Assembly: GCA_040757035.1 (NCBI GenBank)
Contig: JBFLYM010000002.1
Location: forward strand, 4,300 to 68,299
Direction: 5' to 3'
DNA from: Candidatus Micrarchaeota archaeon
Lineage (GTDB): Archaea > Micrarchaeota > Micrarchaeia > Anstonellales > Bilamarchaeaceae
DNA length: 64,000 nucleotides
Positions within the stretch are counted from its first letter, which is position 1, and every line of letters starts with the position of its first letter. Below, piece after piece: positions 5,967 to 21,648 of the stretch. A model generated the notes under the pieces. That model worked only from the letters and a program-made list of their open reading frames with translations. It did no database searches and was not told the origin of the DNA. The translations under genes were made by a program, and so were the position numbers.

Positions 5967-6082
5967 GATAGATTATTAGAAAACAAATTTAAAAAGTTTT
6001 CTATTATGATAGATAACATTAAGTTGGACTAGTATATTTATAATTTGCGCTGTGATATTTCAGTGAGAGTTTGGTCGGGTAG

Positions 6083-6967: not shown

Positions 6968-7879
6968 TTATACAAATTCCAAAAACGCAGCTTCTATCGC
7001 ATCTTTTGCAACCGCATGTTTTACAAGCGGTTTTTCTTTTAATTGCGGGGTTTCGCTTTCATAGGTTGGCCTTTCTTCTCTATAAAAAATACCTATAGGT
7101 ATTTTTTCATAATTACTCGTAATTTCTTCAAACGCTTTTTCAAGTGCCGCAGTTTTATTTTTTTGATTGTATCCTTCTGATTGTCCTTCTAATCGTCCTT
7201 CTAATTTATAAATTCTCTGCTGCCACCATTGATAAGTATTTAATTTGTTAAAAGTAACGCAAGGTTGGAGCGCATCAACAAGCGCAAAACCCTTATGCGT
7301 TATTGCCTGCTTTAAAACATCTTTGGTGTGCATTATATCACCGGCAAACACGCGCGCGACAAAAGTCGCTCCGCTTGCTATTGCAGTGGCTAGTGGATTG
7401 AACGGGGTTTCAAGATTTCCATGCGGAGTGGATTTGGTTTTCATTCCTTTCTGAGTTGTTGGTGATGCCTGTCCTGTAGTAAGCCCATATAAAGCGTTAT
7501 TATGAACGATATAGGTCATATCAATATTACGTCTGAATGAATGTAAAAAATGCGCTGAACCTATACCATATCCATCTCCATCTCCGCTTTCAGCGATCAC
7601 TGTAAGTTCGTGATTCCCAAGTTTTATTCCTGCGGCTGTTGGAACGCTTCTTCCATGCAAAGATTCATATCCATAAACATTGATGTAATGATTGCTTTTA
7701 CTCGCGCATCCTATTCCTGTGACTATAACTATCTTTTCTCTTGGAATGTAAAGTTCAGCGAGCGCACTTTTGAACGCCATGTGCAAACTATAGTTTCCGC
7801 AACCAGGACACCACGGCGGTTTTTCTTTTGTGCTGAATTCTTGCACTGTATTTTGCACTGTATTTTGTATTGTACTCAT
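6968..7879 (-). CDS. korB: 2-oxoacid:ferredoxin oxidoreductase, beta (TPP-binding) subunit
   Basis: CPGCG Cys motif and the GDG..G TPP-binding motif (ESGDGDGYGIG). N-terminus carries the in-frame duplication NTVQNTVQ. Confidence 0.85.
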   Translation of the reverse strand: MSTIQNTVQNTVQEFSTKEKPPWCPGCGNYSLHMAFKSALAELYIPREKIVIVTGIGCASKSNHYINVYGYESLHGRSVPTAAGIKLGNHELTVIAESGDGDGYGIGSAHFLHSFRRNIDMTYIVHNNALYGLTTGQASPTTQKGMKTKSTPHGNLETPFNPLATAIASGATFVARVFAGDIMHTKDVLKQAITHKGFALVDALQPCVTFNKLNTYQWWQQRIYKLEGRLEGQSEGYNQKNKTAALEKAFEEITSNYEKIPIGIFYREERPTYESETPQLKEKPLVKHAVAKDAIEAAFLEFV

Positions 7880-7894
7880 TTTATCGTACTCGTT

Positions 7895-9787
7895 TTATTC
7901 ACTCGCTTTATTTCGCTCTATTTTTTGTTGTGTAGAAAAAATTTGTTGTGTAGAAAAATAATCATATTCAAAATCATCCATTATATGAATTTCTTTTTTT
8001 CCTTTCCAATTTTTTTCCTTAAGCCTTTTTACTTCAGCAACGATTTCTTCTGCAAAAAATTGCCGCGCATTATATTTGAGAAACTTGAAATTTGGTTTTA
8101 ATCCAGTATATTCCTTGAGGATACCTGCGAACTGCGCAGTCCTATTGTTTTCGATCATTATCGTCTTATTGAAAGCGCGAAATATTTTTTTGAGCTTTTT
8201 TGCGTTCAATGGAAATACGTAAATAAAATGAAGCGCGTTTGCTTTTATTCCATCTTTTGCGAGAAGGTTTATCGCATCCAAAACAATTCCCTTGTGCGAA
8301 CCCCAGCATATAAGCGTGATTTCTGCGTTAGGCATCCCATAAAGCTTTGGCACGAACAACTCAATTTCATTCTTAATTATATAATCAAGCTTGCGCATCC
8401 TTTTGTTTGCAAGCGCTGCGCGCGTTCCAAAGTGTTCTGTGCTGTAGCCGGTTTCATCGTGCTCATAAGAACTCGCAACATGTATTCCTCCTTTAACTCC
8501 TGGAATCGGGCGTGGCGAAACTCCATCCTTTGTAATCAGATATCTCTTGTATCGTGTCAAAAGGGGTAACTGAGGTAAATCTCCTCTATCACCTCTATCT
8601 TCGCTAATTATTCTACCGCGTTCAATTTTTATCTCATTTATGTTAAATTTCTCGCAGGAAAAATAAGTTTCTGAAAGATATTTATCGCTCAAAACAATTA
8701 CAGGAATTTGGTATTTTTCGGCTATATTGAGCGCGTTTGCGCTATGGATAAACGCCTCGGAAACATCTCCAGGCGCAACAATAACACGGGGAAATTCGCC
8801 TTGGCTTGCGTTTAGTGCAAACTTCAAATCTGCTTGCTCTGTCCATGTTGGCATTCCGGTGCTTGGGCCGGTCCGCTGTGCAAGAAAAACAGTAATCGGG
8901 GTTTCTGTCATTGCGGTCATTCCTATTGCTTCAACCATAAGCGAAAAACCGCCTCCGCTTGTTCCTGTTGCTGCTCTTACTCCTGCGTAACTCGCGCCGG
9001 CTGCATAAAGCACCGCAGCGATTTCATCTTCAGTTTGCTTTATCAAAATGTCAAAATCAAGTTCTTTTTGCGTAAGGTAATGCATTATGCCTGAAGAAGG
9101 CGTCATTGGGTAAACGGAATAAAACTTTAGTCCACCTGCCGCGGCTCCGAGCGCAAGCGCTTCGTTTCCTGTGATTATCATTTTCATTGCATCGCTCTTT
9201 TTTGAAATTTTGTACTGGAACGCGTTTAGTTCTGCACTATAATTTTCCAATATGTATCTATATCCAGCGTGAGCGATTTTTATATTTTGGTTTATTGTTT
9301 CCTGTCCTTTTTTTGCAAATGTTTCTGCGAGAACTTTTTCCAGCATGCCAATATCATAACCAATTATTGCGATGCTCGCTCCAAGTGCAACTGTATTGAT
9401 CATAATTACGCTACCGCGATTATCTGTAGCGAGTTTAAGTAGCGGAACATTGAACAATTTTATATCTTCGCGCAATTCTCCTGATTCTATTTTTGTTGTA
9501 TTCCCATCGTAAATCATTGCGCCATTCTGAGCAATCTGATCTTTAAGAAAATCTACGCTTGTTTTGTTCAGGCAAATTACCAGATGATTATTTATACATG
9601 GTGAGTGCGCTTCGCTGTCGCTTATTCTTATTTGAAACGTGTTTTCGCCCCCGCGCACAAGAGAAGGATATTCTGGATAACCAATAACATTGAATCCACC
9701 TCTTGTAAATATTTTGCTTAGAATCAGTCCAGAGGCCATTATGCCCATACCGGCTTCGCCGCCAATTTTCAATACAAATTCTACCAT
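7895..9787 (-). CDS. korA: 2-oxoacid:ferredoxin oxidoreductase, fused gamma-alpha subunit
   Basis: 630 aa with a GGEAGMGIMASG N-terminal gamma-like domain and alpha domains, as in two-subunit archaeal OFORs. C-terminus carries the in-frame duplication FSTQQIFSTQQ. Confidence 0.85.
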   Translation of the reverse strand: MVEFVLKIGGEAGMGIMASGLILSKIFTRGGFNVIGYPEYPSLVRGGENTFQIRISDSEAHSPCINNHLVICLNKTSVDFLKDQIAQNGAMIYDGNTTKIESGELREDIKLFNVPLLKLATDNRGSVIMINTVALGASIAIIGYDIGMLEKVLAETFAKKGQETINQNIKIAHAGYRYILENYSAELNAFQYKISKKSDAMKMIITGNEALALGAAAGGLKFYSVYPMTPSSGIMHYLTQKELDFDILIKQTEDEIAAVLYAAGASYAGVRAATGTSGGGFSLMVEAIGMTAMTETPITVFLAQRTGPSTGMPTWTEQADLKFALNASQGEFPRVIVAPGDVSEAFIHSANALNIAEKYQIPVIVLSDKYLSETYFSCEKFNINEIKIERGRIISEDRGDRGDLPQLPLLTRYKRYLITKDGVSPRPIPGVKGGIHVASSYEHDETGYSTEHFGTRAALANKRMRKLDYIIKNEIELFVPKLYGMPNAEITLICWGSHKGIVLDAINLLAKDGIKANALHFIYVFPLNAKKLKKIFRAFNKTIMIENNRTAQFAGILKEYTGLKPNFKFLKYNARQFFAEEIVAEVKRLKEKNWKGKKEIHIMDDFEYDYFSTQQIFSTQQKIERNKASE

Positions 9788-10085
9788 AATTTACATCTGT
9801 AATTCAATCATTCGTAACTTAATCATTCGTAATTAAGTTTGGTAATTAAGTTTGATCATTCGGTGATCACCCGGACAAACTAAAAATGATAGAAAACTTA
9901 ATATAACCTTACCTAAAAATATTTCGGCATTTGGCGAACTGCAACTAATCTTCCTTGAACTGCAGACCTAAATTTCCTTATCTTGAATCATACCGTTGGT
10001 GTGATGAGCTTAGATCGCATTCGCCGCATTTCGGCGCTCAGTAAAACGTAACATTTAAATATATTTTGTTACGTTATAATGTAAC

Positions 10086-11381
10086 ATGGGTATAGACAAA
10101 TTAAACGAATGGAATCCATGGTGGGAGAATAGAGAATCCTTATCTGAATTTACAGGCAAATCAAGGCCAGCATATCTTCAAATACTCAATTCTATAGACA
10201 TAAAGGAAATAACTATATTAACTGGTGTAAGAAGATCTGGAAAAAGTACGTTGATGTATCAGATGATTGATAATTTGCTAAAACAGGGAATTGATTCAAA
10301 ACAGATAGTTTTCGTAAATTTAGAAGATAAAAAACTTTCGAAAGATAGTTTGGATGATATTTACATAGCTTATAGAAAAGAACTCAATCCTGATAGAAAG
10401 GCGTATATTTTTTTTGATGAGATTCATAAGAAAAAGGATTGGGAGTTCTGGATAAGAAAAAAGTATGATTTAAAAACAAATGATAAATTCGTTATTTCCG
10501 GCTCTTGTTCTTATTTATTAAAAAAAGAATACTCTACTTTATTAACTGGGAGGAATATTTCTTATGAAATATTTCCTTTAAGTTTTGAAGAATTTTTATT
10601 GTTTAAAGGCATAGAGATCAATAAAGACAATTTGAAAAAAGGCATAATGATCGAAAAAACAAGATTCTTAATTCTTAAATTTCTTGATGAATACCTAGAT
10701 TTTGGCGGCTTTCCAGAGGTTTTTTTTAAACCAATAAATTTCAAAATAAAACTTTCGGAACAATATTTTGATGATATCCTCTATAAAGACATAATAGATA
10801 GATATAATCCAAATAGTCAAAAAACAAAGGATTTTGCATTATTTTTGATGACTAATTTTACGAGTTTGATTTCGTTAAGAAACATAAGAAATGCGCTTGG
10901 TATATCATATGACTCAATAAAGGATTATTTATCATATTACAAAGAAGCATTTTTATTTTTTATATTGAATCATTTTTCCTATTCCTTCAAAGAACAAAAA
11001 ACTTTGCCGTCCAAGATTTATTGTATAGACAATGGGTTAAGAAATGCCGTTAGCTTCAAATTTTCCAAAGACAAAGGAAAACTCGCAGAGAATGTTGTTT
11101 TTATTGAGTTAAGAAGACGAGGAAAAGATATTTATTATTGGAGAAATAAGGGTGAAATAGACTTTATAATAAAGAACAAGGATCAAACACTGACCGCCAT
11201 AAATGTTTCGTATACCGATGAGATTCCGGAAAGAGAAGTATTCTCATTAAAAGAATTTGAATCAGAATATAAAAACAAAGTGAAGGAACTCGTTTTGATA
11301 ACCGAAAGCATGGAAAAGGAAGAGGAAGGAATTAGGTTTGTTTCCCTATGGAAATGGTTGTTAGGGATGTTAGAAGAGTAA
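10086..11381 (+). CDS. AAA+ ATPase, COG1373 type (AAA_14 + DUF4143), paralog 2
   Basis: GVRRSGKST Walker A and FFDEIH Walker B. C-terminal GEIDFIIKNK (ExDxxxK). Ends SLWKWLLGMLEE. Confidence 0.75.
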   Translation: MGIDKLNEWNPWWENRESLSEFTGKSRPAYLQILNSIDIKEITILTGVRRSGKSTLMYQMIDNLLKQGIDSKQIVFVNLEDKKLSKDSLDDIYIAYRKELNPDRKAYIFFDEIHKKKDWEFWIRKKYDLKTNDKFVISGSCSYLLKKEYSTLLTGRNISYEIFPLSFEEFLLFKGIEINKDNLKKGIMIEKTRFLILKFLDEYLDFGGFPEVFFKPINFKIKLSEQYFDDILYKDIIDRYNPNSQKTKDFALFLMTNFTSLISLRNIRNALGISYDSIKDYLSYYKEAFLFFILNHFSYSFKEQKTLPSKIYCIDNGLRNAVSFKFSKDKGKLAENVVFIELRRRGKDIYYWRNKGEIDFIIKNKDQTLTAINVSYTDEIPEREVFSLKEFESEYKNKVKELVLITESMEKEEEGIRFVSLWKWLLGMLEE

Positions 11382-11402
11382 TTATATTATACGTTTGAGT
11401 AA

Positions 11403-12806
11403 TTATATCTTACTTTTCTTACTTTTGCCATGTTTTTTGTCATGTTTTTTCATCCATAAAATAAAATTTCCAAAGTCATGAGCCAATCCTTGGAATGGAT
11501 AAATCGTAACAATTTTTGCTATGAGTCTGCCAGTTGTTGCTTTTTTCAAAGGACGTACGATCTCTTTGGTGTTTGAAACAACGAAAAAACCAGTGATCAA
11601 TCTTGTCAATGCAATAATCAAAAAGAATATGTGAAAACTGAGAACGGCATTTCCCCCAAGAAACCCAAGAATCGCTCCGCCGAAAATTATTCCTGCAAAT
11701 GTTCCTGTACCACGAGAAAGAGAGAAATCTCCCATCGCGCTTACCCTTGAACGGACGGGTGTAATCTCGTAAAGGTAATTATATACCGTTGCGGATATAC
11801 CGCTCCAAATTATTCCGCTGTATGCTTCGGCAAGGAGAGATTGGACAAAATTGGAAACAAAAATCCAAGGCAATATCATTGTAAAGGAAAGCATACTTAC
11901 AGCGTTCAAGACCTTTTTAGTGCCGTATTTTTCTATCAATCTGCCCCAGTGTGGGGAAGCCAACGCGTAGCTTATTGTCCACAACGCTATTGTAAGTGAA
12001 AATTGGAAATAATCAAATTTAAGCATGTTGAACTTATATATTATTATGTACGGCGCAACCATATTGACTGAAAAGAAAACAAGAAAAATACAAACCAAAT
12101 ATTTCGTAAAATCGTTTCCGAGTTTGGATTTTGATTCTGCTTTTGGATTTGGGTCCCAATAAAGAGTAAGATAATAAGCACTAATGCTCCGAGTAACGAA
12201 TGCAATGAAAAAAAGCGTTCCGAAACCAAAGAATATGTTTGTTTTTGTGTAATCCAGAAAAATCCCTGCCAAAACAAGGGCAGCCAATCCTGCAAGATTC
12301 CACATTCTGTCCCTATAACCAAGCCAGCTCGCTCTTGTTTTTTCATGAACAACATCGCCTATAATTGCGAACCATGCTGGATTTACAACACCGCCAAAAA
12401 AATATATTGCAATTACAAGCAATATAAACGCAGTATTCGCAAAATCCTTAGAGAGTAAATTAAATTGGAACGCGAGCATCGCCACTCCGAACCATGTCAA
12501 AGCTTGTAGCGCAACTCCATAAATCAATATTTTTTTTCTTTCCCATCCAAAATCTGTGAAAAACGAGCCGATTTTCTGCGCAATGCCATCAAAAAGTGCA
12601 GGAAAAGAACCGAGCGCGGTTATGAAAAAAAGCGGAGCTTTGATTGCAATTGCAAACGGTGTCAGAAATACTGTGCCCGTATTCATCATTATTGCCCATA
12701 CTACTCCGTCTAGCGTGGAATAATGCATTGTTTTTTCTATTTTTTCTTTAACATTTTTTTCTTTAGCATTCATAATTATATCCTTGTCCAAATTATACCG
12801 ATCCAC
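11403..12806 (-). CDS. MFS transporter
   Basis: About 12 predicted TM helices and the GxxxDRxGRR-like loop (GYRDRMWN). Confidence 0.65.
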   Translation of the reverse strand: MDRYNLDKDIIMNAKEKNVKEKIEKTMHYSTLDGVVWAIMMNTGTVFLTPFAIAIKAPLFFITALGSFPALFDGIAQKIGSFFTDFGWERKKILIYGVALQALTWFGVAMLAFQFNLLSKDFANTAFILLVIAIYFFGGVVNPAWFAIIGDVVHEKTRASWLGYRDRMWNLAGLAALVLAGIFLDYTKTNIFFGFGTLFFIAFVTRSISAYYLTLYWDPNPKAESKSKLGNDFTKYLVCIFLVFFSVNMVAPYIIIYKFNMLKFDYFQFSLTIALWTISYALASPHWGRLIEKYGTKKVLNAVSMLSFTMILPWIFVSNFVQSLLAEAYSGIIWSGISATVYNYLYEITPVRSRVSAMGDFSLSRGTGTFAGIIFGGAILGFLGGNAVLSFHIFFLIIALTRLITGFFVVSNTKEIVRPLKKATTGRLIAKIVTIYPFQGLAHDFGNFILWMKKHDKKHGKSKKSKI

Positions 12807-12891
12807 TAAAAAAACGTGGATCGCATATACTCAACCAATCGAGATAAAACCTAAAAAACAAAACCGGAAAAACTTAGTTGGTTGAGTATAT
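12794..12891. repeat. 98-bp nested-hairpin repeat, copy B (family R1, opposite orientation to copy A)
   Basis: Reverse complement differs from 3261-3358 at one base. Confidence 0.9.
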
Positions 12892-12929
12892 CATCTGGAT
12901 AGTGTATTGGTGTACAAGCGCATCCAAAA

Positions 12930-13598
12930 TTATTTTATTCTAATAAATATCTCTCCAAAAAAATCATCTTGTCTTAGATCTATTATTTTTTTTTGCGAAA
13001 GATGGAGAAGCGGCATTAGAGTGTTCACTATTTCATTTGCATCTCTATTTTCTAGTAATCCTGAAAATGTCGCCCATCCTTCGCTATCCGCTTTTTGTTT
13101 TAAGCACAGAAAAACGCTACTCATGCGTTCTTCTATATCAAATCTTGGAATTGCAATAGTTATTATCTCTTCTATTTTTTTAGGCTTGGGTTCAACAGGA
13201 TTATCATAAGCAATTATTCGTTCCATTTCTTTTAGCAGATCTTCAAGCGCTATTGGAGCTTTTGGTGGTATGCGCGAAACAAGCTCTAATTTCGGTATTT
13301 CTTCGCACGCGCCCAATGTTCCAGATTCTTCAGCATGAACATCTTGTATTGGTAATTCTTCAGCTATTTTGAGTGCGTTGCTTTTATACTTTAGAAGGAT
13401 TGCGGCAGCGAGTATGAGATTTGCTGGAACATACAATTCAAGCGTTTTCATTTTTTTTAGATTACGAAGAAAACTATCTGCCAACAGCGTTATATCTATA
13501 TTCCAGGGATCAAGCCGTTCACTAGCCATCATCTCCATTAGCATTTCTTTCCACATTGGTTTAAGAATCATCTTTTCTATATTTTCTTCTGCAGACAT
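12930..13598 (-). CDS. scpA: segregation and condensation protein A (kleisin ScpA)
   Basis: N-terminal LDPWNIDITLLADSFL resembles the ScpA 'DIYDIPIAEITDQYL' helix. Length about 220 aa. Confidence 0.55.
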   Translation of the reverse strand: MSAEENIEKMILKPMWKEMLMEMMASERLDPWNIDITLLADSFLRNLKKMKTLELYVPANLILAAAILLKYKSNALKIAEELPIQDVHAEESGTLGACEEIPKLELVSRIPPKAPIALEDLLKEMERIIAYDNPVEPKPKKIEEIITIAIPRFDIEERMSSVFLCLKQKADSEGWATFSGLLENRDANEIVNTLMPLLHLSQKKIIDLRQDDFFGEIFIRIK

Positions 13599-13715
13599 AG
13601 TTGAATTTTAAAATATTCCTTTTATAATCATTATGTAAAATTATTTTATGTGTAAAATCATTTCATGAAGGTAACACGATAGCATAATTAACTAAGTAGA
13701 TAAGCGGGTGACGAT

Positions 13716-14819
13716 GTGAACATGCTAGAATCAAAACTCTTTGATGCGTCAGAACAACTATCAAAGGTGTTCAACGAAATATTGCGAACAGGAACTGCTG
13801 TTTTTATTACAAAAAACAACATACTTTTCGGCCTTATAGACGATAGAAACATGCGAATTGGAATAGCAAATGCGAGTAAAATGAAATGCGAGAATGCGTG
13901 TGTAAAATGCCCTGCGATAGCCGAAAACGCCTCAATTTTGGAATGCATTAACGCATTTCTTTCTGGACATTTCAAAGCACTTCCTGTTTTGAACGCAAAG
14001 AAAAAAATAGTAAATGCAATATCGCGCGTAGATGTTTTAAAAGAACTCAGTGCAAAAAGACTGATTCCGCGTGCGCAGATTTGCAGATATATGAACGCTC
14101 CGGTTTGCACTATAGAAACAGAACAAAGTGTTGCGGATGCGAAATCCAAAATGAAGAAATTTAGAGTACATCATTTAGTTGTAACTCAGAAAGGTAACAT
14201 AGTTGGGATTATTTCAACTTTTGATTTTGTGGGTCTTTTCGCAACACGAAAAGAAAGACAGTCTTACCAGCTAATAAGCGAAATAAAGAATTTTGATTCA
14301 AAAAAAATTAATGAGATTTACAGAGAAAATTTTGTTACTTTGGATGAAAACGCGACACTTGATGAAGCGGTACTAAAAATGATAGATGAGGATACTTCTT
14401 CAATAATAATTGTCGCCAATAAAAAACCTGTTGGCGTACTTACAGCCATGGATATATTCAAACTTGTGCGCAAACTTTGCGCTGAAGAAAGAGATATATC
14501 TATAAATGGCTTAGATAATACCGATGTCGAAGTACGCGTGCATTACGATAAAATAAAACAATATATAATTAATACTATAAATAAATTTGATAGATCATTT
14601 AAAATAGAGAATATCGCAATCCACATGAAAAAAGGAAAGGGCAGATACGAAGCACGCGCGCAGTTTTATCTTAACAATAAACAAATCGCGTTCAAGTGCG
14701 AAGCTTATAGTTTAGGTGAGATTGCATCAACGCTTTCAAGCGAATTTAAAACAATATTGGAAAAGAGAAAGAGCGAAAAAATGGAGAAAAAAAAGCGCTC
14801 GCCTGTAGAAGACCGATAA
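13716..14819 (+). CDS. CBS-domain (4 CBS motifs) protein fused to a C-terminal HPF/RaiA (S30AE)-like domain
   Basis: Four CBS-like segments in residues 1-270. The last ~95 aa (VEVRVHYDKIKQYIINTINKFDRSF...AFKCEAYSLGEIASTLSSEFKTILEKRKSE) align in order with the HPF beta-alpha-beta-beta-beta-alpha pattern (…A.AEG.DMY.AID..DKLARQL.K). Confidence 0.55.
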   Translation: MNMLESKLFDASEQLSKVFNEILRTGTAVFITKNNILFGLIDDRNMRIGIANASKMKCENACVKCPAIAENASILECINAFLSGHFKALPVLNAKKKIVNAISRVDVLKELSAKRLIPRAQICRYMNAPVCTIETEQSVADAKSKMKKFRVHHLVVTQKGNIVGIISTFDFVGLFATRKERQSYQLISEIKNFDSKKINEIYRENFVTLDENATLDEAVLKMIDEDTSSIIIVANKKPVGVLTAMDIFKLVRKLCAEERDISINGLDNTDVEVRVHYDKIKQYIINTINKFDRSFKIENIAIHMKKGKGRYEARAQFYLNNKQIAFKCEAYSLGEIASTLSSEFKTILEKRKSEKMEKKKRSPVEDR

Positions 14820-14866
14820 AAATATTCGGTCCTCTGAAAAACGTGGATCGCATATGGGGTAATTTC

Positions 14867-15283
14867 ATGAAAAAAGGACAGATTAGTATGGAATTGCTTA
14901 TCATAGTTGGATTTGTAATGCTACTTTTCATTCCGCTTATTCTCATCGTATCTCATAAAACAAATGAAATGGATGTTGATATGAAAGCAAGTCAAAGTCA
15001 TCTTATTTTATCTAAATTCACGTATATTGCTAATTCGCTAGGTTCAATGGGCGAAGGCAGTGCACTCAAGTTTGAACTTACGCTTCCAGAACAGGTAAAA
15101 ACGCTTCATTTTAGAGCACTTGGAGATGGAGGAGAGGTGATGCTTACAACGAACGATGGAAGTCAAATCTCTCAAATTACGCGATTTCCATTTAATAGTA
15201 CACAAAATTATTCTGGAGGTACAGCCTATAAATTTGAATTTCTTTCTCAAAATGGATATATTGTCATCTCGCTTTCGCAGTAA
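14867..15283 (+). CDS. type IV pilin-like protein (class III signal peptide)
   Basis: MKKGQ|ISMELLIIVGFVMLLFIPL is a K/R-G-Q cleavage motif followed by a hydrophobic helix. ORF opens at 14843 but the start is probably 14867. Confidence 0.6.
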   Translation: MKKGQISMELLIIVGFVMLLFIPLILIVSHKTNEMDVDMKASQSHLILSKFTYIANSLGSMGEGSALKFELTLPEQVKTLHFRALGDGGEVMLTTNDGSQISQITRFPFNSTQNYSGGTAYKFEFLSQNGYIVISLSQ

Positions 15284-15330
15284 ACAAATAAACAAAAACC
15301 TTATTAATTTTTCATACAAATAAAATCCTT

Positions 15331-15849
15331 ATGCTTACTTATTCTGAATTGCGTGAAATACAAAAAAAAGAGATTGAATCGTTTGAACTAGTGAAAGTTG
15401 AAAAGGATTTTTACTCCCAGCTTAAATTGTTTATAGAGTCTAAAAAAGCATGCGCACTCAAAAACCAATCATTTGATGAAATGCGAGAATTTGAAAACGC
15501 GAAGAAGATCGTGCGAAGTATAATAACAAAAAGAAGAGAAAAAATTTCAATGCTTTTCACGCTCCAAAACCAAGAAATAGAAGGGCTTGCAAACGAAGAA
15601 CGACTGTTTTTAGCCCAAATAAGAAAAATTGCTAGCGAATCTTTTGAACAATTTGATTCATTGTTTTTAGAACCAAAAAACGAAATCCTGCGTAGGACAA
15701 GAATAAAAATTGTTAAAACATTAGAAGCTTATAAAGGTTTTGATAACAATATATATGGACCGTACAAAGAAGGTGAGGAAATTTTTCTTCCAGAAGAAGA
15801 AGCCGAATGGCTCTTGAAAAACAAAATGGCTGAGCATATTAGTAATTAG
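15331..15849 (+). CDS. hypothetical protein, possible GINS subunit (Gins51/Gins15-like)
   Basis: N-terminal L..EL....E...L.....DFY..L..FI pattern resembles archaeal GINS A-domains. This is weak. Confidence 0.3.
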   Translation: MLTYSELREIQKKEIESFELVKVEKDFYSQLKLFIESKKACALKNQSFDEMREFENAKKIVRSIITKRREKISMLFTLQNQEIEGLANEERLFLAQIRKIASESFEQFDSLFLEPKNEILRRTRIKIVKTLEAYKGFDNNIYGPYKEGEEIFLPEEEAEWLLKNKMAEHISN

Positions 15850-15959
15850 ATAATCTTTAGATAATTAATAGAAAATCATATTGCTATAATTGATAATGCT
15901 ATAATTGATAAATTCCTGTGGTCTAAAGGTTAAAGGTCTGGAAATTTAGGTGATATAAA

Positions 15960-16241
15960 ATGAAATATCCAAAGGAAATTAATACCTATTGCCCAAATTG
16001 TAATTCGCACCAACTGCATAAAGTTAAAATGGCGAGCAAAGGACGCACCAGAACTATGGCAGTTGGAAACAGAAAACATGAAAAAAGATTGCACGGTCAC
16101 GGCGGTAAACGCGCTGGTGAAAAAACAGTAAAAAAACAAGGAAAACGACAAAAAGTGATAATTGAATGCCAAACTTGCAAAAAAAAGCATGAGCGTGTGA
16201 TCCGTGGGAGAACAAAAAAAAAGTTGGAAATAAAAGCGTGA
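15960..16241 (+). CDS. rpl44e: 50S ribosomal protein L44e (eL42)
   Basis: CPNC...CQTC zinc-ribbon motif, very basic 93-aa protein and conserved operon position. Confidence 0.9.
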   Translation: MKYPKEINTYCPNCNSHQLHKVKMASKGRTRTMAVGNRKHEKRLHGHGGKRAGEKTVKKQGKRQKVIIECQTCKKKHERVIRGRTKKKLEIKA

Positions 16242-16294
16242 TTAATAAGAAGAATAGTTAATAAGAAAAGTAATTACTAAAAAAGGATGACAAT

Positions 16295-16456
16295 ATGGCA
16301 AAATTTATAGTTATAAAATGCGAATGCGGAAACGAACAAAAAGTTTTTAGTACTCCGTCAACGAATGTTAAATGCAGAGTGTGCAATAAAATAATTGCAA
16401 TCGCAACTGGAGGAAAAGCAGCGTTTTTGGGAAAACGAATAAGAAGCGCAGAATAG
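16295..16456 (+). CDS. rps27e: 30S ribosomal protein S27e (eS27)
   Basis: 53-aa ORF MAKFIVIKCECGNEQKVFSTPSTNVKCRVCNKIIAIATGGKAAFLGKRIRSAE with C4 zinc finger. Below the ORF-track length cutoff. Confidence 0.85.
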   Translation: MAKFIVIKCECGNEQKVFSTPSTNVKCRVCNKIIAIATGGKAAFLGKRIRSAE

Positions 16457-16468
16457 CAGGAAATATTC

Positions 16469-17233
16469 ATGGAACCCACAACACTTCCCGAGGAAAGCGA
16501 ATTTGTGCTTGCAACCATAAAAAAAATAATGCCATACGGCGCACTTTGCGTCCTTCCTGAATACAAAAATGCCGAAGCGTTCTGTCATGTATCAGAAGTT
16601 GCTTCGCGCTGGATAAAAAATATTCATGAATTCATTTCTGAGAATGATAAAATAGTTGTAAAGGTTTTGCGTGTTGACCGCGAAAAAAGGCAGATTGATG
16701 TTTCAATCAGGCGCGTTAATGAAGAAGAAAAACGAAACAAGCTTGAATCAGTAAAAAGAGCGGCACGAGCGGAAAAATTGCTTCAGTTTGCACTTAGTAA
16801 ATCCAAATGTCAATTAAACCTAAATGAGATAGTATCAAAACTCGAGGATGTTTATGGCGAAGCATACTCAGCGCTTGAAAATGCGCTTGAAAATGATGAC
16901 GCCTTTGCAAAAATACAAATTCCTAATACGCTTAAGAAGGAGATTATAGACGTTGTACGAAAAAGCATAAAAAAAGCAAAAATTTTTGTAAGCGCCAAAT
17001 TTAATTTAAAGTGCTTCGGCGCTAATGGAGTAAACAGTATAAAAAAAGCACTAACAATAGACAAATCCGATGCGAATGATGTGCATATACTTTATATGGG
17101 CGCTCCGAATTATAAAATAGTGGTTTCTGCGTCAGAATATAAAGATGCAAATAAAAAGTTGGAGAAGATACTGGAAAAAATTAGCTCTTCATTGGATAAG
17201 GATTGCATATTTGAATATAGACTTGAAAAATAG
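16469..17233 (+). CDS. eif2a: translation initiation factor 2 alpha subunit (aIF2-alpha)
   Basis: N-terminal S1 domain (GALCVLPEYKNAEAFCHVSEVAS), length and operon context between S27e and Nop10. Confidence 0.85.
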   Translation: MEPTTLPEESEFVLATIKKIMPYGALCVLPEYKNAEAFCHVSEVASRWIKNIHEFISENDKIVVKVLRVDREKRQIDVSIRRVNEEEKRNKLESVKRAARAEKLLQFALSKSKCQLNLNEIVSKLEDVYGEAYSALENALENDDAFAKIQIPNTLKKEIIDVVRKSIKKAKIFVSAKFNLKCFGANGVNSIKKALTIDKSDANDVHILYMGAPNYKIVVSASEYKDANKKLEKILEKISSSLDKDCIFEYRLEK

Positions 17234-17277
17234 ATTTGAAAAGTAAAAAATGCTACGGAGAATAGGAAAGAATATAA

Positions 17278-17430
17278 ATGAAAAAAATGCGCAAATGTGG
17301 TATATGCAAGGTATATACATTTAAGGAATTACATTGCAATTCCTTAACGGCTTCGGCACATCCAGTGCGTTTCAATCCAAATGAAAGATACGCGGAACAG
17401 CGAAGAAAAACAAAAAACCTTGGTGGATGA
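17278..17430 (+). CDS. nop10: H/ACA ribonucleoprotein complex subunit Nop10
   Basis: 50-aa ORF MKKMRKCGICKVYTFKELHC...AHPVRFNPNERY matching the Nop10 zinc-ribbon and AHPxRFSP motif. Not in the ORF track (<60 aa). Confidence 0.85.
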   Translation: MKKMRKCGICKVYTFKELHCNSLTASAHPVRFNPNERYAEQRRKTKNLGG

Positions 17431-18197
17431 ATACTATGAAAGAAACTATTATTATAGAAAAATGTAAAATAAATCTTAGATCGCCGATTCTCCTTGTCGG
17501 ATTACCTGGTATTGGACTTATTGGGCAGGTGGTATGTAAATATGTGGCGCACAAAATGAATGGAAAAAAGATTGCGGATCTGTTTTCTCCACACTTTCCG
17601 CACCAGGTATTAATGACTAAAAAAGGTACAATTAGATCAATTAAGAACATGTTTTATCATGTTAAGATAAATAAATTAGATCTTGTTCTTCTTTTAGGGG
17701 ATGTACAGGCGATAACCCCAGAAGGACAATATGAAGTTGCAGGCAAGATAGTTGATTATGCGAAAACTATTGGAGTGAAAAATATTATTTGTATAGGTGG
17801 GTATAGCACAGGTAAGTTCAACGAAAATAGAAGGGTTTTTGGAGTGGTTACACACAGGCATCTTATTCCGAAATTCAAAAAGGTCAATGTTATTTTTGGC
17901 GAAGCAAGAGGCGCCATCTTAGGGGCTGCTGGTATTATACCTGCGATCGCAAAAATAAACGGAATGCACGCCGCGTGTATAATGGGTGAAACACACGGCG
18001 GATATGTCGATGCGATTTCGGCGCGCAATGTGATTAATGTTCTTGAAAAGCTTCTTAATTTCAGTATTGATCTTACTGATTTAGAGAAACAAGCTAAGGA
18101 AGGCGAAAAAATAATCAAAAAAATAGAAGATGAAATACAAAAACAGGTGATTGCGCCTTATGAAACAGAAAAAAAAGATATTTCTTATATTCGCTAA
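17427..18197 (+). CDS. PAC2-family proteasome assembly chaperone-like protein
   Basis: LLVGLPGIGLIGQV motif of the PAC2/DUF75 family. Start overlaps the Nop10 stop (ATGA), as in the conserved archaeal operon. Confidence 0.5.
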   Translation: MNTMKETIIIEKCKINLRSPILLVGLPGIGLIGQVVCKYVAHKMNGKKIADLFSPHFPHQVLMTKKGTIRSIKNMFYHVKINKLDLVLLLGDVQAITPEGQYEVAGKIVDYAKTIGVKNIICIGGYSTGKFNENRRVFGVVTHRHLIPKFKKVNVIFGEARGAILGAAGIIPAIAKINGMHAACIMGETHGGYVDAISARNVINVLEKLLNFSIDLTDLEKQAKEGEKIIKKIEDEIQKQVIAPYETEKKDISYIR

Positions 18198-18222
18198 ATA
18201 TTCGCTAACTTGAGGTGATAAT

Positions 18223-18444
18223 TTGAAAGGGCAACTCTCGGCGGAAATGATAATATTGATTGCGGTTATTCTTGCGGTAGTAGCGATAGTGGCTATTAGT
18301 ATGATAAAGTCTGCTGAAAAGGCGAGTAAAACATTTGAAAACCAAAGCGACACAATATTAGACCGCAGTGCTGATATTGTAAATAATCTTAGCGCTGAAA
18401 TTCCGCAAAACCAAAGCGCGGTTTCATTTGCAAAGATAGAATGA
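18223..18444 (+). CDS. type IV pilin-like protein (class III signal peptide)
   Basis: MKGQ|LSAEMIILIAVILAVVAIVAI. Confidence 0.6.
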   Translation: MKGQLSAEMIILIAVILAVVAIVAISMIKSAEKASKTFENQSDTILDRSADIVNNLSAEIPQNQSAVSFAKIE

Positions 18445-18839
18445 AAGATAAAATGAAGATGATCAGAGGTCAGCTCACTATAGAATATCTTTTTCTTGCA
18501 CTTATTTCGCTTTGTTTGATTACTATCTCATTAGGTGCGCTCATTAAATTGCAAGAAGCAGGCACACGTATTTTTCATTCCGGGGCGTTCAAATCCTCAG
18601 TACTTGATATTTATAATTCTGGTGAAGAATTATGTGCGATGGGTCCTGGAAATACTATGAAAATAAAAATAAAAGAAAACGTTTCTATTGCGCAAAACGA
18701 AACCAAAACAATATTTTCTAATCAAGACCTGAATATCTCAATTTCGCAAGATACGAATTGCAAATATCAAGATATAGATCTTTTGGCTAATTCAGAAATA
18801 ACAATAAAGAACGAGAATGGAGAGATAAGGATAGAATAA
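18441..18839 (+). CDS. type IV pilin-like protein (class III signal peptide)
   Basis: MIRGQ|LTIEYLFLALISLCLITISL. Translationally coupled to the preceding pilin gene. Confidence 0.6.
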   Translation: MKDKMKMIRGQLTIEYLFLALISLCLITISLGALIKLQEAGTRIFHSGAFKSSVLDIYNSGEELCAMGPGNTMKIKIKENVSIAQNETKTIFSNQDLNISISQDTNCKYQDIDLLANSEITIKNENGEIRIE

Positions 18840-19239
18840 AGTTACAAAAATAAGATTGATGAGGAGGTACGAAATGAAATTAGTTGAAATTAAGGATCTT
18901 TCTGTTGTTTTCGAAGAGCTTGAGCCAAAACAGGTGGCGTTCACGAACCCGAAATCGTTGTAAAAGCGCGCGCGTTTTGTAAAGTCAAGTTTGATGCTTC
19001 GGCTAAAGTCGGTAATATGAATGACTTGATAATCTGCCTTGAGGACTTGCTTAAACAAAGGGGCTAACATAGCCAAACCGAGATAAAAAACCGCCCGCTT
19101 GAGGTAAAGTGTGGTTGTTCTATTACAGAGATATATTTTTTGTTTATTTTTTATTCGTATTCGAACAAGTTGGCGGACAGCGAATCAATTAGGTATTGGT
19201 TGCGATATCTTATTAAACAATATTACGTAATATTAAAAA

Positions 19240-20994
19240 ATGAACGGGGCAGAACTTTTAACAAAAACGCTAATTGCGCATAATGTTAAGATAACATGGG
19301 GCATAACCGGAGGAGTGCTTATACCTTTATTTGACGCTATGCTTAACGAAAGCGACAACATAAAAAATATTCTTACAAGGCATGAACAAGGCGCAGTCCA
19401 TGCTGCTGAAGGATATTCACGCGCACTCGGAAAGCCAGGTGTGTGTATAGGAACGAGCGGTCCTGGAGCAACAAATTTAGTTACTGGAATAATGGACGCG
19501 TATATGGATTCTGTTCCGATAATCGCATTGGGCGGACAGGTTGCAACCCATCTTATAGGAAATGACGCGTTCCAAGAAACCGATATGTATGGAATAACTA
19601 TGCCGATAACCAAGCATAGTTTTGCGCTCCGCGATTCCGATAAAATTGGAATCACGCTGACAAAGGCATTCAAAATCGCAACAGAAGGGAGACCTGGTCC
19701 TGTTTATATAGATATGCCTATAGATGTACTAAAAAAAGAAGTTGGATCTCATCATGCTCATTACGCCCATCATATAAAACAAGCGTATATTGAAGGATTT
19801 CAGCCAACGCTAATACCAAATCACAGACAAGTCGTACGCGCAGCAGAACTCATACTCAAAGCAGAGCGGCCAGTTCTTATTGCAGGCGGAGGAGTTATAA
19901 TCGCAAATGCATCAAATGAACTTGCAGAACTCGCAACCCTATTATTTATTCCTGTTGTGACTACGCTCCAAGGTAAAGGTTGTTTTGACGAAAGACATCC
20001 GCTCGCTTTAGGAGTTATTGGCATGCATGGAAAAAAAGTCGCCAACTACGCACAAATAAACGCAGATGTAATTATAGCAATAGGTACAAGATTTTCTGAC
20101 AGAATTACCGGAAATCTTGCGAGTTATGCAGAACATGCGAAAGTTATACATGTGGATATTGATCCAGCAGAAATAGGCAAAAATGTAAAAGTTGAAGTAC
20201 CTATTGTTGGCGATGCAAAAAATACTCTTATTGCGTTGATACAGGTTATAAAAAAATTGATGAGAAAAAATGAAAAAAATGCGTGGAGCGAAAAATTAAT
20301 GCAGTTTAAAGAAATATGCGACAAGTGTATACTAATAGGTAAAATAGGCGGAAAGGAGGCTAATGTGCCTAATGTGCGGATTCATCCGCGGCAAATAATA
20401 GATGTGTTGAATTTCGTGCTTAAAGAAGATGATATCGTAACCACCGGAGTTGGGCAGCATCAAATGTTTGCAATGCATTTTCTTAAGCGTTCGCGGCCAA
20501 GAACGTTTATATCATCTGGCGGTTCTGGAACAATGGGTTTTGGACTTCCTTCTGCAATGGGTGCGAAGATTGCGATGCCGAATAAAAACGTAATTAATAT
20601 AGATGGCGATGGTTCGTTTCAGATGAACATTCAAGAACTTGGTACAATAAAAGAAAACAACATAAACATTACATCTATGATATTCAATAATTCGTACTTA
20701 GGAATGGTGCGCCAATGGCTTGAGATATTTTATGGAAAGAGATATGCGCAGGTAAATTTAGGTAAAAATATTCAATTCGCAAAAATAGCCGAAGCATATG
20801 GACTTAATGGCGAAGTTGTTGAGCGCTCTTCTGAATTAAATGAAAAAATAAAAAATGCGATTAAATCAGATGTTGCCACTGTGTTAGATGTGCGCATAGA
20901 GGAAGAATCAAACATCCTTCCAATGCTGCCGCCAGGAGGCAATCTCAAACAAATGTTCGGTCCCTGCATAAAAGGACCTGATCAGTGGTTTTGA
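19240..20994 (+). CDS. ilvB: acetolactate synthase, large (catalytic) subunit
   Basis: TPP-enzyme three-domain architecture with GTSGPGATNL, the FAD region and the C-terminal TPP motif GDGSFQMN. Confidence 0.9.
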   Translation: MNGAELLTKTLIAHNVKITWGITGGVLIPLFDAMLNESDNIKNILTRHEQGAVHAAEGYSRALGKPGVCIGTSGPGATNLVTGIMDAYMDSVPIIALGGQVATHLIGNDAFQETDMYGITMPITKHSFALRDSDKIGITLTKAFKIATEGRPGPVYIDMPIDVLKKEVGSHHAHYAHHIKQAYIEGFQPTLIPNHRQVVRAAELILKAERPVLIAGGGVIIANASNELAELATLLFIPVVTTLQGKGCFDERHPLALGVIGMHGKKVANYAQINADVIIAIGTRFSDRITGNLASYAEHAKVIHVDIDPAEIGKNVKVEVPIVGDAKNTLIALIQVIKKLMRKNEKNAWSEKLMQFKEICDKCILIGKIGGKEANVPNVRIHPRQIIDVLNFVLKEDDIVTTGVGQHQMFAMHFLKRSRPRTFISSGGSGTMGFGLPSAMGAKIAMPNKNVINIDGDGSFQMNIQELGTIKENNINITSMIFNNSYLGMVRQWLEIFYGKRYAQVNLGKNIQFAKIAEAYGLNGEVVERSSELNEKIKNAIKSDVATVLDVRIEEESNILPMLPPGGNLKQMFGPCIKGPDQWF

Positions 20995-21479
20995 TGGAGA
21001 AAAGGCATACTATTGCGATAACAGTGGAAGACCAGCCTGGCGTGCTAACGCGTATCGCAGGGCTTTTTTCGCGTAGAAGTTTTAATATAGACACTATCAC
21101 AGTAGGCAAAAGCGAAAGAGAAGGAATAAGTAAAATGATAATTAGTGTAATTGGCGATGACCACGATCTTGAACAAATTGAAAAACAAATAAACAAACTC
21201 ATAGACACAATAAAAGTAAGCGAAATGCCTGAGAAAAGTGCATTTATCGCTGAATTATGCATGATAAAGGTTGCGGTTTCGGACAAAAAAATTAAAGATG
21301 ATATATTTAGTTATGCGAGCGTATACAATGCAAAAATTGTTGGAATGACGAATAAAACTATGACCATGTACATAGTCGGCGAACCTGAAAATATTGAATC
21401 ATATATCAGGCTTATGAGTCAATTCGGAATAAAAGAGATAAGCAGAACAGGAATTACAGCGATTTCAAAGGATTGGTAA
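20985..21479 (+). CDS. ilvN: acetolactate synthase, small (regulatory) subunit
   Basis: ACT domain HTIAITVEDQPGVLTRIAGLFSRRSFNI. Overlaps ilvB. Confidence 0.85.
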   Translation: MVLMEKRHTIAITVEDQPGVLTRIAGLFSRRSFNIDTITVGKSEREGISKMIISVIGDDHDLEQIEKQINKLIDTIKVSEMPEKSAFIAELCMIKVAVSDKKIKDDIFSYASVYNAKIVGMTNKTMTMYIVGEPENIESYIRLMSQFGIKEISRTGITAISKDW

Positions 21480-21496
21480 TATACATATATGCGATC

Positions 21497-21516
21497 GATT
21501 TAGCGGCTCAGTAAAA
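21497..21516. repeat. 20-bp motif cgatttagcggctcagtaaa (left boundary of the two-ATPase block)
   Basis: Identical 20-mer at 24318-24337. A related 15-mer tcggcgctcagtaaa at 10036-10050 lies upstream of ATPase paralog 2. Confidence 0.7.
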
Positions 21517-21648
21517 AACAAAGGTTTTATGAAAAAAGCGAAGAAACTCGTTCGATTGTTACTACTATTGAGCAATAAAATTTCCAGCTATTATAAACTC
21601 GTATTTATAGAATTTGCGAAAAATCCATCATCCTAGAGGAACGAGGTG

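Follow-up and report, generated by a model that had tools for sequence, protein, structure and literature searches.

A hibA-family gene in Micrarchaeota encodes a CBS tetrad with an HPF/RaiA-like domain and is very likely orthologous to HibA, a ribosome hibernation factor of archaea

The gene and its product

We report that the 64-kb stretch of DNA analysed here (the window), which derives from an archaeon of the Micrarchaeota (DPANN), carries at 13716..14819 on the + strand a gene of the hibA/AHA family encoding a CBS tetrad followed by an HPF/RaiA-like domain. The open reading frame begins with GTG and corresponds to 367 aa, and translation from ATG 13722, which is in frame, yields 365 aa, a product identical to MEW6528354.1 (P0078), which in GenBank is labelled merely "CBS domain-containing protein [Ca. 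Micrarchaeota archaeon]". Because of this identity, and because a Shine-Dalgarno-like motif read from the sequence (GGGTGA, 13706..13711, + strand) is positioned 10 nt before the ATG (and 4 nt before the GTG), ATG 13722 appears more likely to be the start than GTG 13716. The gene ends with a TAA stop codon (14817-14819, + strand) and its product is basic, with computed pI values of 9.4 for the whole protein and 9.6 for the C-domain.

Comparative analysis identified 54 full-length orthologs and 58 species loci in Micrarchaeota; the family is thus conserved in at least 58 species-level Micrarchaeota genomes, with identities among the orthologs down to 30% and with one relative, P0001, being 99% identical to the window protein. 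The orthologs are currently named 'CBS domain-containing protein', 'IMP dehydrogenase' or 'predicted transcriptional regulator', and two carry the JGI name 'CBS domain-containing protein/ribosome-associated translation inhibitor RaiA'. In the window, hibA is located between scpA and a GINS51-like gene, and the divergent intergenic region is AT-rich and 117 bp long. Besides hibA, no second HPF or CBS-tetrad gene was found in the 64-kb window, and neither was any tRNA gene.

Fusions of CBS and HPF domains were described in 2025-2026 as the widespread HibA/AHA proteins, and the window gene adds a new member to this family. For HibA of Pyrococcus abyssi and Thermococcus barophilus, a role as ribosome hibernation factor was shown by experiment (Madru et al., Nat Commun 2026; PMC13324472); members include P. 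abyssi PAB0961, T. kodakarensis TK1186 and T. barophilus TERMP_00697, structures are available as PDB 9SR9-9SRF and 9T7H, and the four CBS motifs occupy residues 1-269 and the HPF domain residues 270-392 (PMC13324472). AHA is the ribosome hibernation factor HVO_2384 of Haloferax volcanii (Souza et al., bioRxiv 2026; PMC12934967). Both block the mRNA/tRNA sites and bind AMP, and in both the CBS module binds 50S and reaches with a loop into the peptidyl-transferase centre (PTC; PMC13324472, PMC12934967). The survey of HibA, with ~130 Micrarchaeota genomes in its genome database, detected it in ~47% of the archaeal genomes, with another 8% having HPF-like proteins that stand alone (PMC13324472), while the AHA survey spans 17 phyla (PMC12934967). 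Hence, the prevailing view, cited in a preliminary description of the window, that archaea lack HPF is outdated, although the same description, reasoning from the raw sequence, independently reached the recently published discovery of archaeal HPF-CBS hibernation factors.

The N-terminal CBS module

Residues 1-258 (13716..14489, + strand) constitute a module of four CBS motifs in tandem (two Bateman pairs) arranged as a disk, as seen using Pfam, AlphaFold2, Foldseek and a colinear alignment with P. abyssi HibA (Pa-HibA). Specifically, Pfam matched CBS in the window protein in three stretches (E=2.8e-27), the AlphaFold2 model (pLDDT 86.9) has four beta-alpha-beta-beta-alpha CBS units, and Foldseek aligned 260-290 columns of the model to the four-CBS proteins SSO3205, SriA/B/D, Dri, MJ1225 and AMPK-gamma.

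Adenosine-ribose-binding-type motifs of the form G-h-h-S/T-x-x-D are kept in CBS3 (GIISTFD, residues 164-170; 14205..14225, + strand) and in CBS4 (GVLTAMD, residues 240-246; 14433..14453, + strand), i.e. in the AMP/ATP-binding region of HibA and AHA. In CBS3 the G is present in 52, the S/T in 53 and the D in 53 of the 54 orthologs, and in CBS4 both G and D are present in all 54. From these motifs and by analogy with HibA and AHA we infer that the Micrarchaeota protein binds adenine nucleotides at CBS3/CBS4. It had been proposed that the CBS motifs act as an adenylate sensor that couples energy charge to ribosome binding. Adenylate binding as such agrees with the binding of AMP/ATP by HibA (Kd for AMP of 12 μM for Pa-HibA; PMC13324472), but in vitro the binding of HibA to the ribosome is unchanged by AMP or ATP (PMC13324472). 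Nor is the module a sensor alone, given that in HibA and AHA it also binds 50S and enters the PTC; by homology, the CBS module of the window protein would likewise be the part that binds both 50S, at the tRNA sites, and adenylates.

CBS3 is followed by an extended loop (residues ~177-196, ATRKERQSYQLISEIKNFDS; 14244..14303, + strand) that corresponds in position to the 'PTC loop' of HibA (Pa 190-207) and to 'loop 3' of AHA. In the alignment its length differs by one residue from Pa-HibA 187-208, and residue identity is partial, with L186 and E189 conserved and a Tyr that is ambiguous. Residues 180-190 are the sole internal segment with pLDDT <50 in an otherwise confident AlphaFold2 model. By analogy with HibA and AHA, the loop has a putative role in the PTC.

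The C-terminal HPF/RaiA-like domain

Profile homology, structure models and fold search place an HPF/RaiA-like domain at residues 259-360 (14490..14795, + strand). According to the model, it comprises beta1 (261-264), alpha1 (271-290), beta2 (297-306), beta3 (311-319), beta4 (322-330) and alpha2 (333-360). The presence in an archaeon of a CBS tetrad with a C-terminal HPF/RaiA (S30AE) fold, as first suggested in the preliminary description, is accordingly borne out by three approaches that agree (profile searches, structure prediction and fold search), while the segment map given there has to be corrected in part. Both the helix YDKIKQYIINTINKF and the helix at the end (the 'AEGxDMYAAID..DKLARQL' region) match, but beta1 was misplaced: in the AlphaFold2 model 'VEVRVH' (residues 271-276) begins helix alpha1, and beta1 is ISIN (261-264), which lies inside a family-conserved I-S-G-L motif.

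For the window protein alone, PF02482 scored 15.1-15.3 bits (E=0.03-0.04), which is below the Pfam gathering threshold of 23.7 bits. When the C-terminal 116 aa were used as a single sequence, NCBIfam gave no match and phmmer against PDB gave just one spurious match, to colicin E3, and no HPF. Searches with the C-domain as a single sequence are too weak and therefore family profiles are needed. Thus, a profile of 41 orthologs retrieved E. coli HPF at E=6.9e-9 from PDB, together with ~20 further HPF/YfiA/RaiA chains. Moreover, PF02482 matched 23 of the 41 orthologs (best 3.3e-10), several of them above threshold, and a precomputed PF02482 match is present in four orthologs, so that the family-level signal greatly exceeds what chance would give; the profile check put forward earlier consequently fails for the window sequence but succeeds for the family.

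The structural comparison that had also been suggested, prediction followed by superposition on HPF, gave a clear outcome, since the models have the HPF topology and HPF/RaiA/pY proteins make up nearly all of the ~30 best Foldseek matches to the domain model, with TM-scores of 0.6-0.82 and rmsd values of 2.2-3.5 Å against 3tqm, 4hei, 8fmw, 8rd8, 6h4n and 4y4o. Residues that bacterial HPF proteins have in common are kept in the C-domain, namely K-F where alpha1 ends, K-x-x-K within beta2, an E in beta4 and a K in alpha2. The domain is followed by a basic tail, KRSPVEDR (14796..14816, + strand), that continues the K/R-rich end of alpha2 and has the family consensus LxKxKSxKxxxKK. It is the counterpart of the HibA tail, which is located at the mRNA exit channel where it contacts h23, h24, uS7 and uS11 (PMC13324472), and a corresponding role may be suggested for it.

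Relationship to HibA and AHA

We consider it highly probable that the window gene is the Micrarchaeota ortholog of the gene for the archaeal ribosome hibernation factor HibA (alias AHA). The full-length family profile matched 9sr9_H (Pa-HibA, 392 aa) at E=3.8e-32 as a single colinear alignment (9-347 to 17-370). HibA being the best colinear match in PDB, the CBS module of the window protein may belong to the monophyletic HibA-CM clade, which is sister to CM-5/SriA-like modules. With the window protein alone the match to Pa-HibA (E=4.2e-14) is limited to the CBS region and does not surpass that to MJ1225, which has no HPF domain. The reconstructed Pa-HibA chain reproduces the published numbering 283SAL285 and 324KFRGVHL330, and the reference structure of HibA-PTC, 9SRE (PMC13324472), has the same chain sequence as 9sr9_H. 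HibA was absent from the Foldseek PDB matches of the full-length model (library to 2026-04-08), in which the 9SR9-series chains did not appear.

Compared with Pa-HibA, the window protein is without the insertions at beta13-alpha11 (283SAL285) and in the beta14-beta15 hairpin (324KFRGVHL330). These 'archaeal-specific' insertions make contacts with uS19 and uS12 as well as with decoding bases A1461 and G496 (PMC13324472), and relative to the Micrarchaeota profile Pa-HibA shows insertions of 4 and 6 residues at exactly these two sites; at the first of them, the window protein and P0001 have a 3-residue insertion of their own. Since the HibA-deltadelta variant, in which both insertions are missing, still inhibits translation in a luminescence assay (PMC13324472), the insertions do not strictly define the HibA family, and Micrarchaeota HibA is in effect a natural 'deltadelta', i.e. 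a minimal form with a hairpin of bacterial length. We also mapped the rRNA-contact residues listed in Supplementary Data 1 for Pa-HibA onto the window protein. In the N-domain 7 of 24 are identical and in the C-domain none of 24 is identical and four are of the same class, figures that come from an uncertain alignment (~20% identity), in particular with respect to the loops of the C-domain. Among those keeping their class is Pa R299, which corresponds to K290 and is K or R in 53 of the 54 orthologs.

The small number of contact residues kept and the absence of both insertions would also fit a CBS-tetrad regulator that does not act on the ribosome, such as a regulator of transcription akin to HhpR/CM-3 or a metabolic sensor resembling AMPK gamma. 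Such a function would be in keeping with a weak CBS-only likeness to HhpR, CcpN and PrdR (NCBIfam) and with a pairwise score of the CBS module that is as good against MJ1225 as against HibA, and its proponents could point to the links with replication/recombination proteins that the authors of HibA noted in pull-downs (PMC13324472) together with the two genes that flank hibA in the window. However, the HhpR, CcpN and PrdR scores are far under the NCBIfam cut-offs and involve CBS motifs only, and the inhibition of translation by HibA-deltadelta weakens the argument from the insertions. Moreover, the C-domain is homologous to HPF at the commonly conserved sites, tail and pI are basic, and it is HibA, rather than an HhpR-like or Sri-like protein, that is matched colinearly over the full length, with the position of the PTC loop occupied. 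We judge a non-ribosomal regulator to be decidedly improbable.

The downstream pilin-like gene

A type-IV-pilin-like gene with a class III signal peptide (MKKGQ|ISMELL) is present at 14843..15283 (+ strand), with ATG 14867, 7 nt after GGGGT, as the likely start. Pfam, NCBIfam and PDB profile searches with its product revealed no feature other than the class III signal peptide, and in a homolog search the family was restricted to Micrarchaeota. The gene is positioned directly 3' of hibA in 56 of 57 Micrarchaeota species loci, the gaps ranging from -4 to +56 nt with a 4-nt overlap being frequent. In the window no terminator-like site was detected between the two genes; a scan of 13400-15500 for sigma-70-type promoters and terminators gave the same result as shuffled sequence, this model not being applicable to archaeal promoters. 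The two genes are probably co-transcribed and probably also translationally coupled. The phylum-wide pairing is possibly new, and neither it nor the minimal, insertion-free form of Micrarchaeota HibA is mentioned in the papers on HibA and AHA (PMC13324472, PMC12934967).

It is conceivable, albeit unlikely, that HibA and its lineage-restricted pilin-like partner form a phylum-conserved two-gene module that ties hibernation to the envelope or to host attachment. If true, HibA might be sequestered at and released from the membrane, or dormancy and attachment might be co-induced, in these episymbiotic DPANN archaea. That HibA acts together with the membrane protein, or is sequestered or anchored by it, would agree with an adjacency retained despite divergence of hibA to 30% identity and with the 'sequestering partner', so far unknown, that the authors of HibA postulated (PMC13324472). 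On the other hand, it is not obvious how a secreted or membrane-bound pilin-like protein would gain access to ribosomes in the cytoplasm, and the adjacency may reflect inherited gene order because phylum-wide synteny extends to the whole block (SepF, ScpA, HibA, pilin-like, DHOase-like); we regard this explanation of the role of HibA as very improbable. The pairing is a small new lead and not yet evidence of a new mechanism.

That the product might be a subunit of an enzyme related to IMP dehydrogenase, or of another 'dehydrogenase', is suggested by the name of ortholog P0010 ('Inosine-5'-monophosphate dehydrogenase'; NCBI/nr), by weak NCBIfam IMPDH matches and by the name 'Dehydrogenase' in the PDB deposit of Pa-HibA. 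The chance of this is negligible, domain content ruling it out: TIGR01302 matches the CBS sub-domain only (profile positions 90-199), with 25.6 bits where the cut-off is 481, no catalytic TIM-barrel ((beta/alpha)8) was found by Pfam, model or fold search, and the name is a carry-over from the CBS pair of IMPDH.

Predicted mode of action and implications

As an ortholog of HibA, the Micrarchaeota protein would, by analogy with HibA and AHA, bind the ribosome at the same sites, inhibit translation, bind nucleotides and possibly be regulated by them. Low energy or growth arrest might be the trigger, upon which the basic HPF/RaiA-like domain (259-360 plus tail) would enter the mRNA/tRNA channel of 30S between head and body and block the A site and the P site, with the tail reaching towards the mRNA exit channel. 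The four-CBS disk, held on a short linker, would dock on 50S across the tRNA sites such that the flexible loop after CBS3 (~177-196) could reach the peptidyl-transferase centre. In this way, a single polypeptide would clamp both subunits, leaving the 70S idle and protected from nucleases. The pocket at CBS3/CBS4 probably prefers AMP over ADP and ATP and might thereby provide the energy-state input.

For this gene and its orthologs, which are present in at least 58 Micrarchaeota species, the label can be changed to HibA/AHA-family ribosome hibernation factor. Genome-reduced, host-dependent DPANN archaea thus retain a full-length hibernation factor, trimmed of the two archaeal insertions, and such a factor is of the kind expected to be needed for survival away from the host. 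Furthermore, the minimal Micrarchaeota HibA could reveal which of the ribosome contacts are dispensable.

Comparison with known systems

AMPK gamma, MJ1225 and SSO3205 share the fold of residues 1-258 (target-normalised TM-score 0.6-0.76) as well as adenosine-binding motifs, but they are devoid of a ribosome-binding domain and are not known to associate with the ribosome. The same four-CBS disk fold is present in Dri (Thermoproteota, 9E6Q/9E7F), SriA-D (Methanosarcina, 9ZNF/9ZNG/9ZNI) and ARC-P/ARC-A (Methanolobus), of which 9znf_4 and 9e7f_3 ranked second and third in the Foldseek search with the full model and 9zni_6 was among the strongest sequence matches. These factors bind the ribosomal subunit interface and sense adenylates, as described in the papers on HibA and AHA (PMC13324472, PMC12934967). 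Unlike the window protein, they are without an HPF domain and block 30S with a second CBS tetrad or an 'occlusion element', and their sequence matches to the window family are out of register or repeat-driven rather than colinear.

The C-domain is homologous in fold and sequence pattern to bacterial and plastid HPF/RaiA (YfiA, pY; PF02482), and the beta2-beta3 hairpin of E. coli HPF has the same length as in the Micrarchaeota profile, to which it aligns gap-free. By analogy with bacterial HPF, the C-domain is expected to bind in the mRNA/tRNA channel of 30S. Short HPF/RaiA proteins are stand-alone (~95-115 aa), whereas the window domain is C-terminal to a CBS tetrad of 258 residues; long HPF has an N-terminal HPF and a C-terminal dimerisation domain, a layout that the window protein does not share; and the last helix of the window domain (28 residues) is longer than that of bacterial HPF.

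AHA has an AMPK-gamma-related CBS tetrad and a C-terminal HPF domain with an elongated terminal helix, as does the window protein; in AHA, loop 3 of CBS3 enters the PTC and AMP is found at the CBS3/CBS4 junction, and two bound AMP molecules were observed (PMC12934967). The hosts of the HibA proteins named above are hyperthermophiles whereas the window host is a mesophilic, low-GC DPANN archaeon, and the window protein (365-367 aa) is ~25 residues shorter than HibA (392 aa), yet both are composed of a CBS tetrad and a C-terminal HPF domain, with G-h-h-S/T-x-x-D in both CBS3 and CBS4.

The hibA gene and its product

The open reading frame (ORF) that the preliminary description had placed at 13716..14819 is found at exactly this position on the + strand in the ORF listing of the window, where it has a GTG start and encodes 367 amino acids. 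An alternative in-frame start, ATG 13722, is located 10 nt 3' of a GGGTGA motif and gives a 365-residue product identical to a database protein of the same family (P0078; GenBank MEW6528354.1 / MFZ5340562.1) with the record title 'MAG: CBS domain-containing protein [Candidatus Micrarchaeota archaeon]'. Given this identity the gene, here referred to as hibA after the published archaeal ribosome hibernation factor HibA, is real and already deposited, under a generic name only. The hibA stop codon (TAA, 14817-14819) lies within a short inverted repeat with the arms GACCGA-(9 nt)-TCGGTC (14811..14831, +). The repeat lacks a downstream T-run, the terminator scan gave nothing at this site, and it may be a chance occurrence.

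The CBS module

CBS was detected by Pfam in three stretches of the protein (E=2.8e-27), the first CBS motif being too divergent for Pfam detection. An AlphaFold2 model built on 54 orthologs (pLDDT 86.9, pTM 0.70) has four beta-alpha-beta-beta-alpha units across residues ~5-256, and using Foldseek 260-290 columns of the model were aligned to four-CBS disk proteins (E down to 1e-17), i.e., SSO3205 with AMP, the ribosome-bound SriA/B/D and Dri, MJ1225 and AMPK-gamma; the four CBS motifs described from the sequence are correct. The adenosine-ribose motif G-h-h-S/T-x-x-D reads GIISTFD in CBS3 and GVLTAMD in CBS4, and its Asp is kept in 53/54 and 54/54 orthologs, respectively. The sole internal low-confidence segment of the model is a loop at residues ~177-196.

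The HPF-like C-terminal domain

At least 54 full-length orthologs (350-390 amino acids; identity 99% down to 31%) make up the family of the window protein. Precomputed matches to PF02482 (Ribosomal_S30AE, HPF/RaiA) are present on four of these, and two orthologs carry the JGI name 'CBS domain-containing protein/ribosome-associated translation inhibitor RaiA'. A single-sequence search of PDB sequences with the C-terminal region of the window protein gave nothing meaningful. A profile of 41 C-terminal domains of the family (A2) matches, among PDB chains, E. coli HPF at E=6.9e-9 and ~20 other HPF/YfiA/RaiA chains from ribosome structures. Moreover, searched one by one, 23 of the 41 domains match PF02482 (best 3.3e-10), which is the only Pfam family to recur among them. 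The window protein alone (E=0.03-0.04, 15 bits) is below the PF02482 cut-off of 23.7.

The domain model (pLDDT 84.9) points in the same direction. Strands are predicted at residues 261-264, 297-306, 311-319 and 322-330 and helices at 271-290 and 333-360 (full-length numbering), and nearly all of the top ~30 Foldseek matches in PDB are HPF, RaiA/YfiA/pY or RafH from hibernating ribosomes (TM-score ≤0.82, rmsd 2.2-3.5 Å). The A2 profile, the PF02482 matches of the orthologs and the fold search thus agree with the HPF-fold C-terminus previously proposed, and since both profile and fold matches were obtained, an unrelated fold is not indicated. One detail is revised: VEVRVH, previously taken as beta1, is the first turn of helix alpha1 according to the model and the ortholog alignment, while the true beta1 is ISIN, inside the family-invariant I-S-G-L motif. 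Between beta1 and alpha1, within DVEVRVH, there is a three-residue insertion (residues ~271-275; 14526..14540, +) confined to the window protein and the 99%-identical database protein P0001; it is absent from the other 52 aligned orthologs.

Distribution and gene neighbourhood

Scanning of GTDB species representatives gave 58 hibA loci, all in Micrarchaeota, with Bilamarchaeaceae and Anstonellales among them. Within the 64-kb window, hibA was the only gene found with an HPF domain or a CBS tetrad. The genes around hibA are archaeal housekeeping genes (ScpA, GINS51-like, L44e, S27e, aIF2-alpha, PAC2, aIF5B, Tyw1 and PFOR) and the GC content is 32-40%. A syntenic block across the Micrarchaeota loci comprises SepF (30 loci), divergent ScpA (50/62), hibA, a small pilin-like ORF and a DHOase-like gene (41/62), whereas the downstream side in the window is occupied by GINS51-like, L44e, S27e, aIF2-alpha and PAC2. 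Between hibA and the divergently oriented gene for the condensin subunit ScpA (12930..13598, -) lie 117 bp of AT-rich intergenic DNA, and the divergent arrangement recurs in related loci (L001, L003, L005 and others).

The most constant neighbour of hibA is the pilin-like homolog, present directly 3' on the same strand in 56 of the 57 loci with enough sequence to judge; the spacing ranges from -4 to +56 nt, and the two genes often overlap by 4 nt. In the window this gene (14843/14867..15283, +; likely true start ATG 14867) begins 23-47 nt after the hibA stop. Its product, ~140 amino acids, has a class III (type IV prepilin-like) signal peptide, MKKGQ|ISMELL, conforming to the family pattern K-G-Q|V/I-S-x-E with invariant Q and E, and the C-terminal part is beta-rich. 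Beyond the signal peptide the family has no match in Pfam, NCBIfam or PDB; it is confined to Micrarchaeota (31 clusters, all annotated hypothetical). The pairing is unmentioned in the HibA (PMC13324472) and AHA (PMC12934967) texts. Common inheritance of the gene order could explain it without any functional link, and we therefore consider it as a lead only. A second small ORF with a class III signal peptide (18223..18444, +; 73 amino acids; PF04021, E=4.9e-6) is positioned directly after the PAC2 gene and aligns with the N-terminal portion of the profile of the pilin-like family (E~1e-7).

Other features of the window

Pfam domains identify four ATPase genes, 4704..5966 (-), 10086..11381 (+), 21649..22899 (-) and 23020..24102 (-), a density that is unusual for a small genome. 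Three are AAA_14 + DUF4143 paralogs within 20 kb; the fourth is a related ATPase (ATPase_2/AAA_14) with a winged-helix domain of the MCM type at its C-terminus. An AroE-AroK fusion is encoded by a single 474-residue ORF (33789..35213, +), with shikimate dehydrogenase (N-terminal, NAD-binding) and shikimate kinase (SKI, E=1.8e-41) domains. Four ORFs, all +, lack Pfam matches at E≤1e-4: 26747..28555 (602 amino acids), 32193..33782 (529), 31489..32196 (235) and 6083..6772 (229). ARAGORN predicted no tRNA genes in the window (1..64000).

Relationship to HibA and AHA

The CBS + HPF architecture has already been discovered and characterised. HibA was found in cryo-EM maps of stressed Pyrococcus abyssi ribosomes (Madru et al., Nat Commun 2026, PMC13324472). 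Its C-domain occupies the 30S mRNA/tRNA channel, while the CBS module has three positions on the 50S (PTC, uL5 and L1 stalk) and a 'PTC loop' (190-207) that is wound around A2834, a universally conserved nucleotide. In isolation, the module has a higher affinity for AMP (Kd 12 μM) than for ADP or ATP. Thermococcus barophilus without hibA shows delayed recovery and depleted 70S ribosomes. Of 4026 archaeal genomes, 47% encode HibA and 8% a stand-alone HPF-like protein, the latter chiefly in DPANN and Nitrososphaerales (PMC13324472). AHA of Haloferax volcanii is the same protein (Souza et al., bioRxiv 2026, PMC12934967), with two AMP molecules at the CBS3/CBS4 junction, a CBS3 'loop 3' inserted into the PTC, and homologs in 2,723 species from 17 phyla. 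ATP-triggered release is reported for ARC, a related complex.

The full-length profile of the window family (A1) aligns with PDB chain 9sr9_H in one colinear stretch (profile 9-347 to chain 17-370, E=3.8e-32), whereas other CBS-tetrad ribosome factors (9zni_6, Sri) match via out-of-register repeats. Chain 9sr9_H is a 392-residue 'Dehydrogenase' in entries 9SR9-9SRF and 9T7H; the HibA-PTC reference structure named in the HibA paper is 9SRE (PMC13324472). Because the chain sequence rebuilt from the alignment reproduces the published numbering of 283SAL285 and 324KFRGVHL330, 9sr9_H is the P. abyssi protein, Pa-HibA. The observation is confirmed, and its interpretation as a CBS/HPF fusion in an archaeon is supported.

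HibA and AHA use the CBS3/CBS4 site, where at the sequence level the motif is nearly invariant in the window family, and loop ~177-196 fills the position of the Pa-HibA PTC loop at about the same length. The window protein is basic (pI 9.4; C-domain 9.6), and its K/R-rich helix end and tail resemble the HibA tail, which reaches h23, h24, uS7 and uS11. By homology we infer ribosome binding, translation inhibition and ligand sensing. Specifically, the C-domain would plug the channel for decoding and mRNA on the 30S, and on the 50S the CBS disk would lie over the tRNA sites, from where its loop could extend into the PTC. Both parts would thereby keep the 70S idle and protected from nucleases. Adenylate binding at CBS3/4 would provide an energy-state input, its consequence for ribosome binding being putative for HibA as well.

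At ~20% overall identity and with uncertain loop alignment, 7/24 N-domain ribosome contacts of Pa-HibA are identical in the window protein, and of the C-domain contacts 0/24 are identical and 4/24 of the same class. A few positions stay basic, e.g. R299 (K290 here; K or R in 53/54 orthologs), and the HibA authors remark on 'fast evolution of the domain' (PMC13324472). Both insertions that they call archaeal-specific are missing from the Micrarchaeota family: relative to its profile, Pa-HibA has 4- and 6-residue insertions exactly at these two sites, the first being the site of the three-residue insertion within DVEVRVH of the window protein. The Pa-HibA insertion in the beta14-beta15 hairpin extends to uS12 and to the decoding bases A1461 and G496 (PMC13324472), whereas the window-family hairpin aligns with E. 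coli HPF without gaps. The absence of the two insertions is not disqualifying since the engineered HibA-deltadelta variant still inhibits translation (PMC13324472). Our data establish the architecture, folds and homology of the window protein, which belongs to the published HibA/AHA family and does not represent a new class; its value is in the correct annotation of a DPANN ortholog, in a naturally insertion-less variant and in a possible partner gene.
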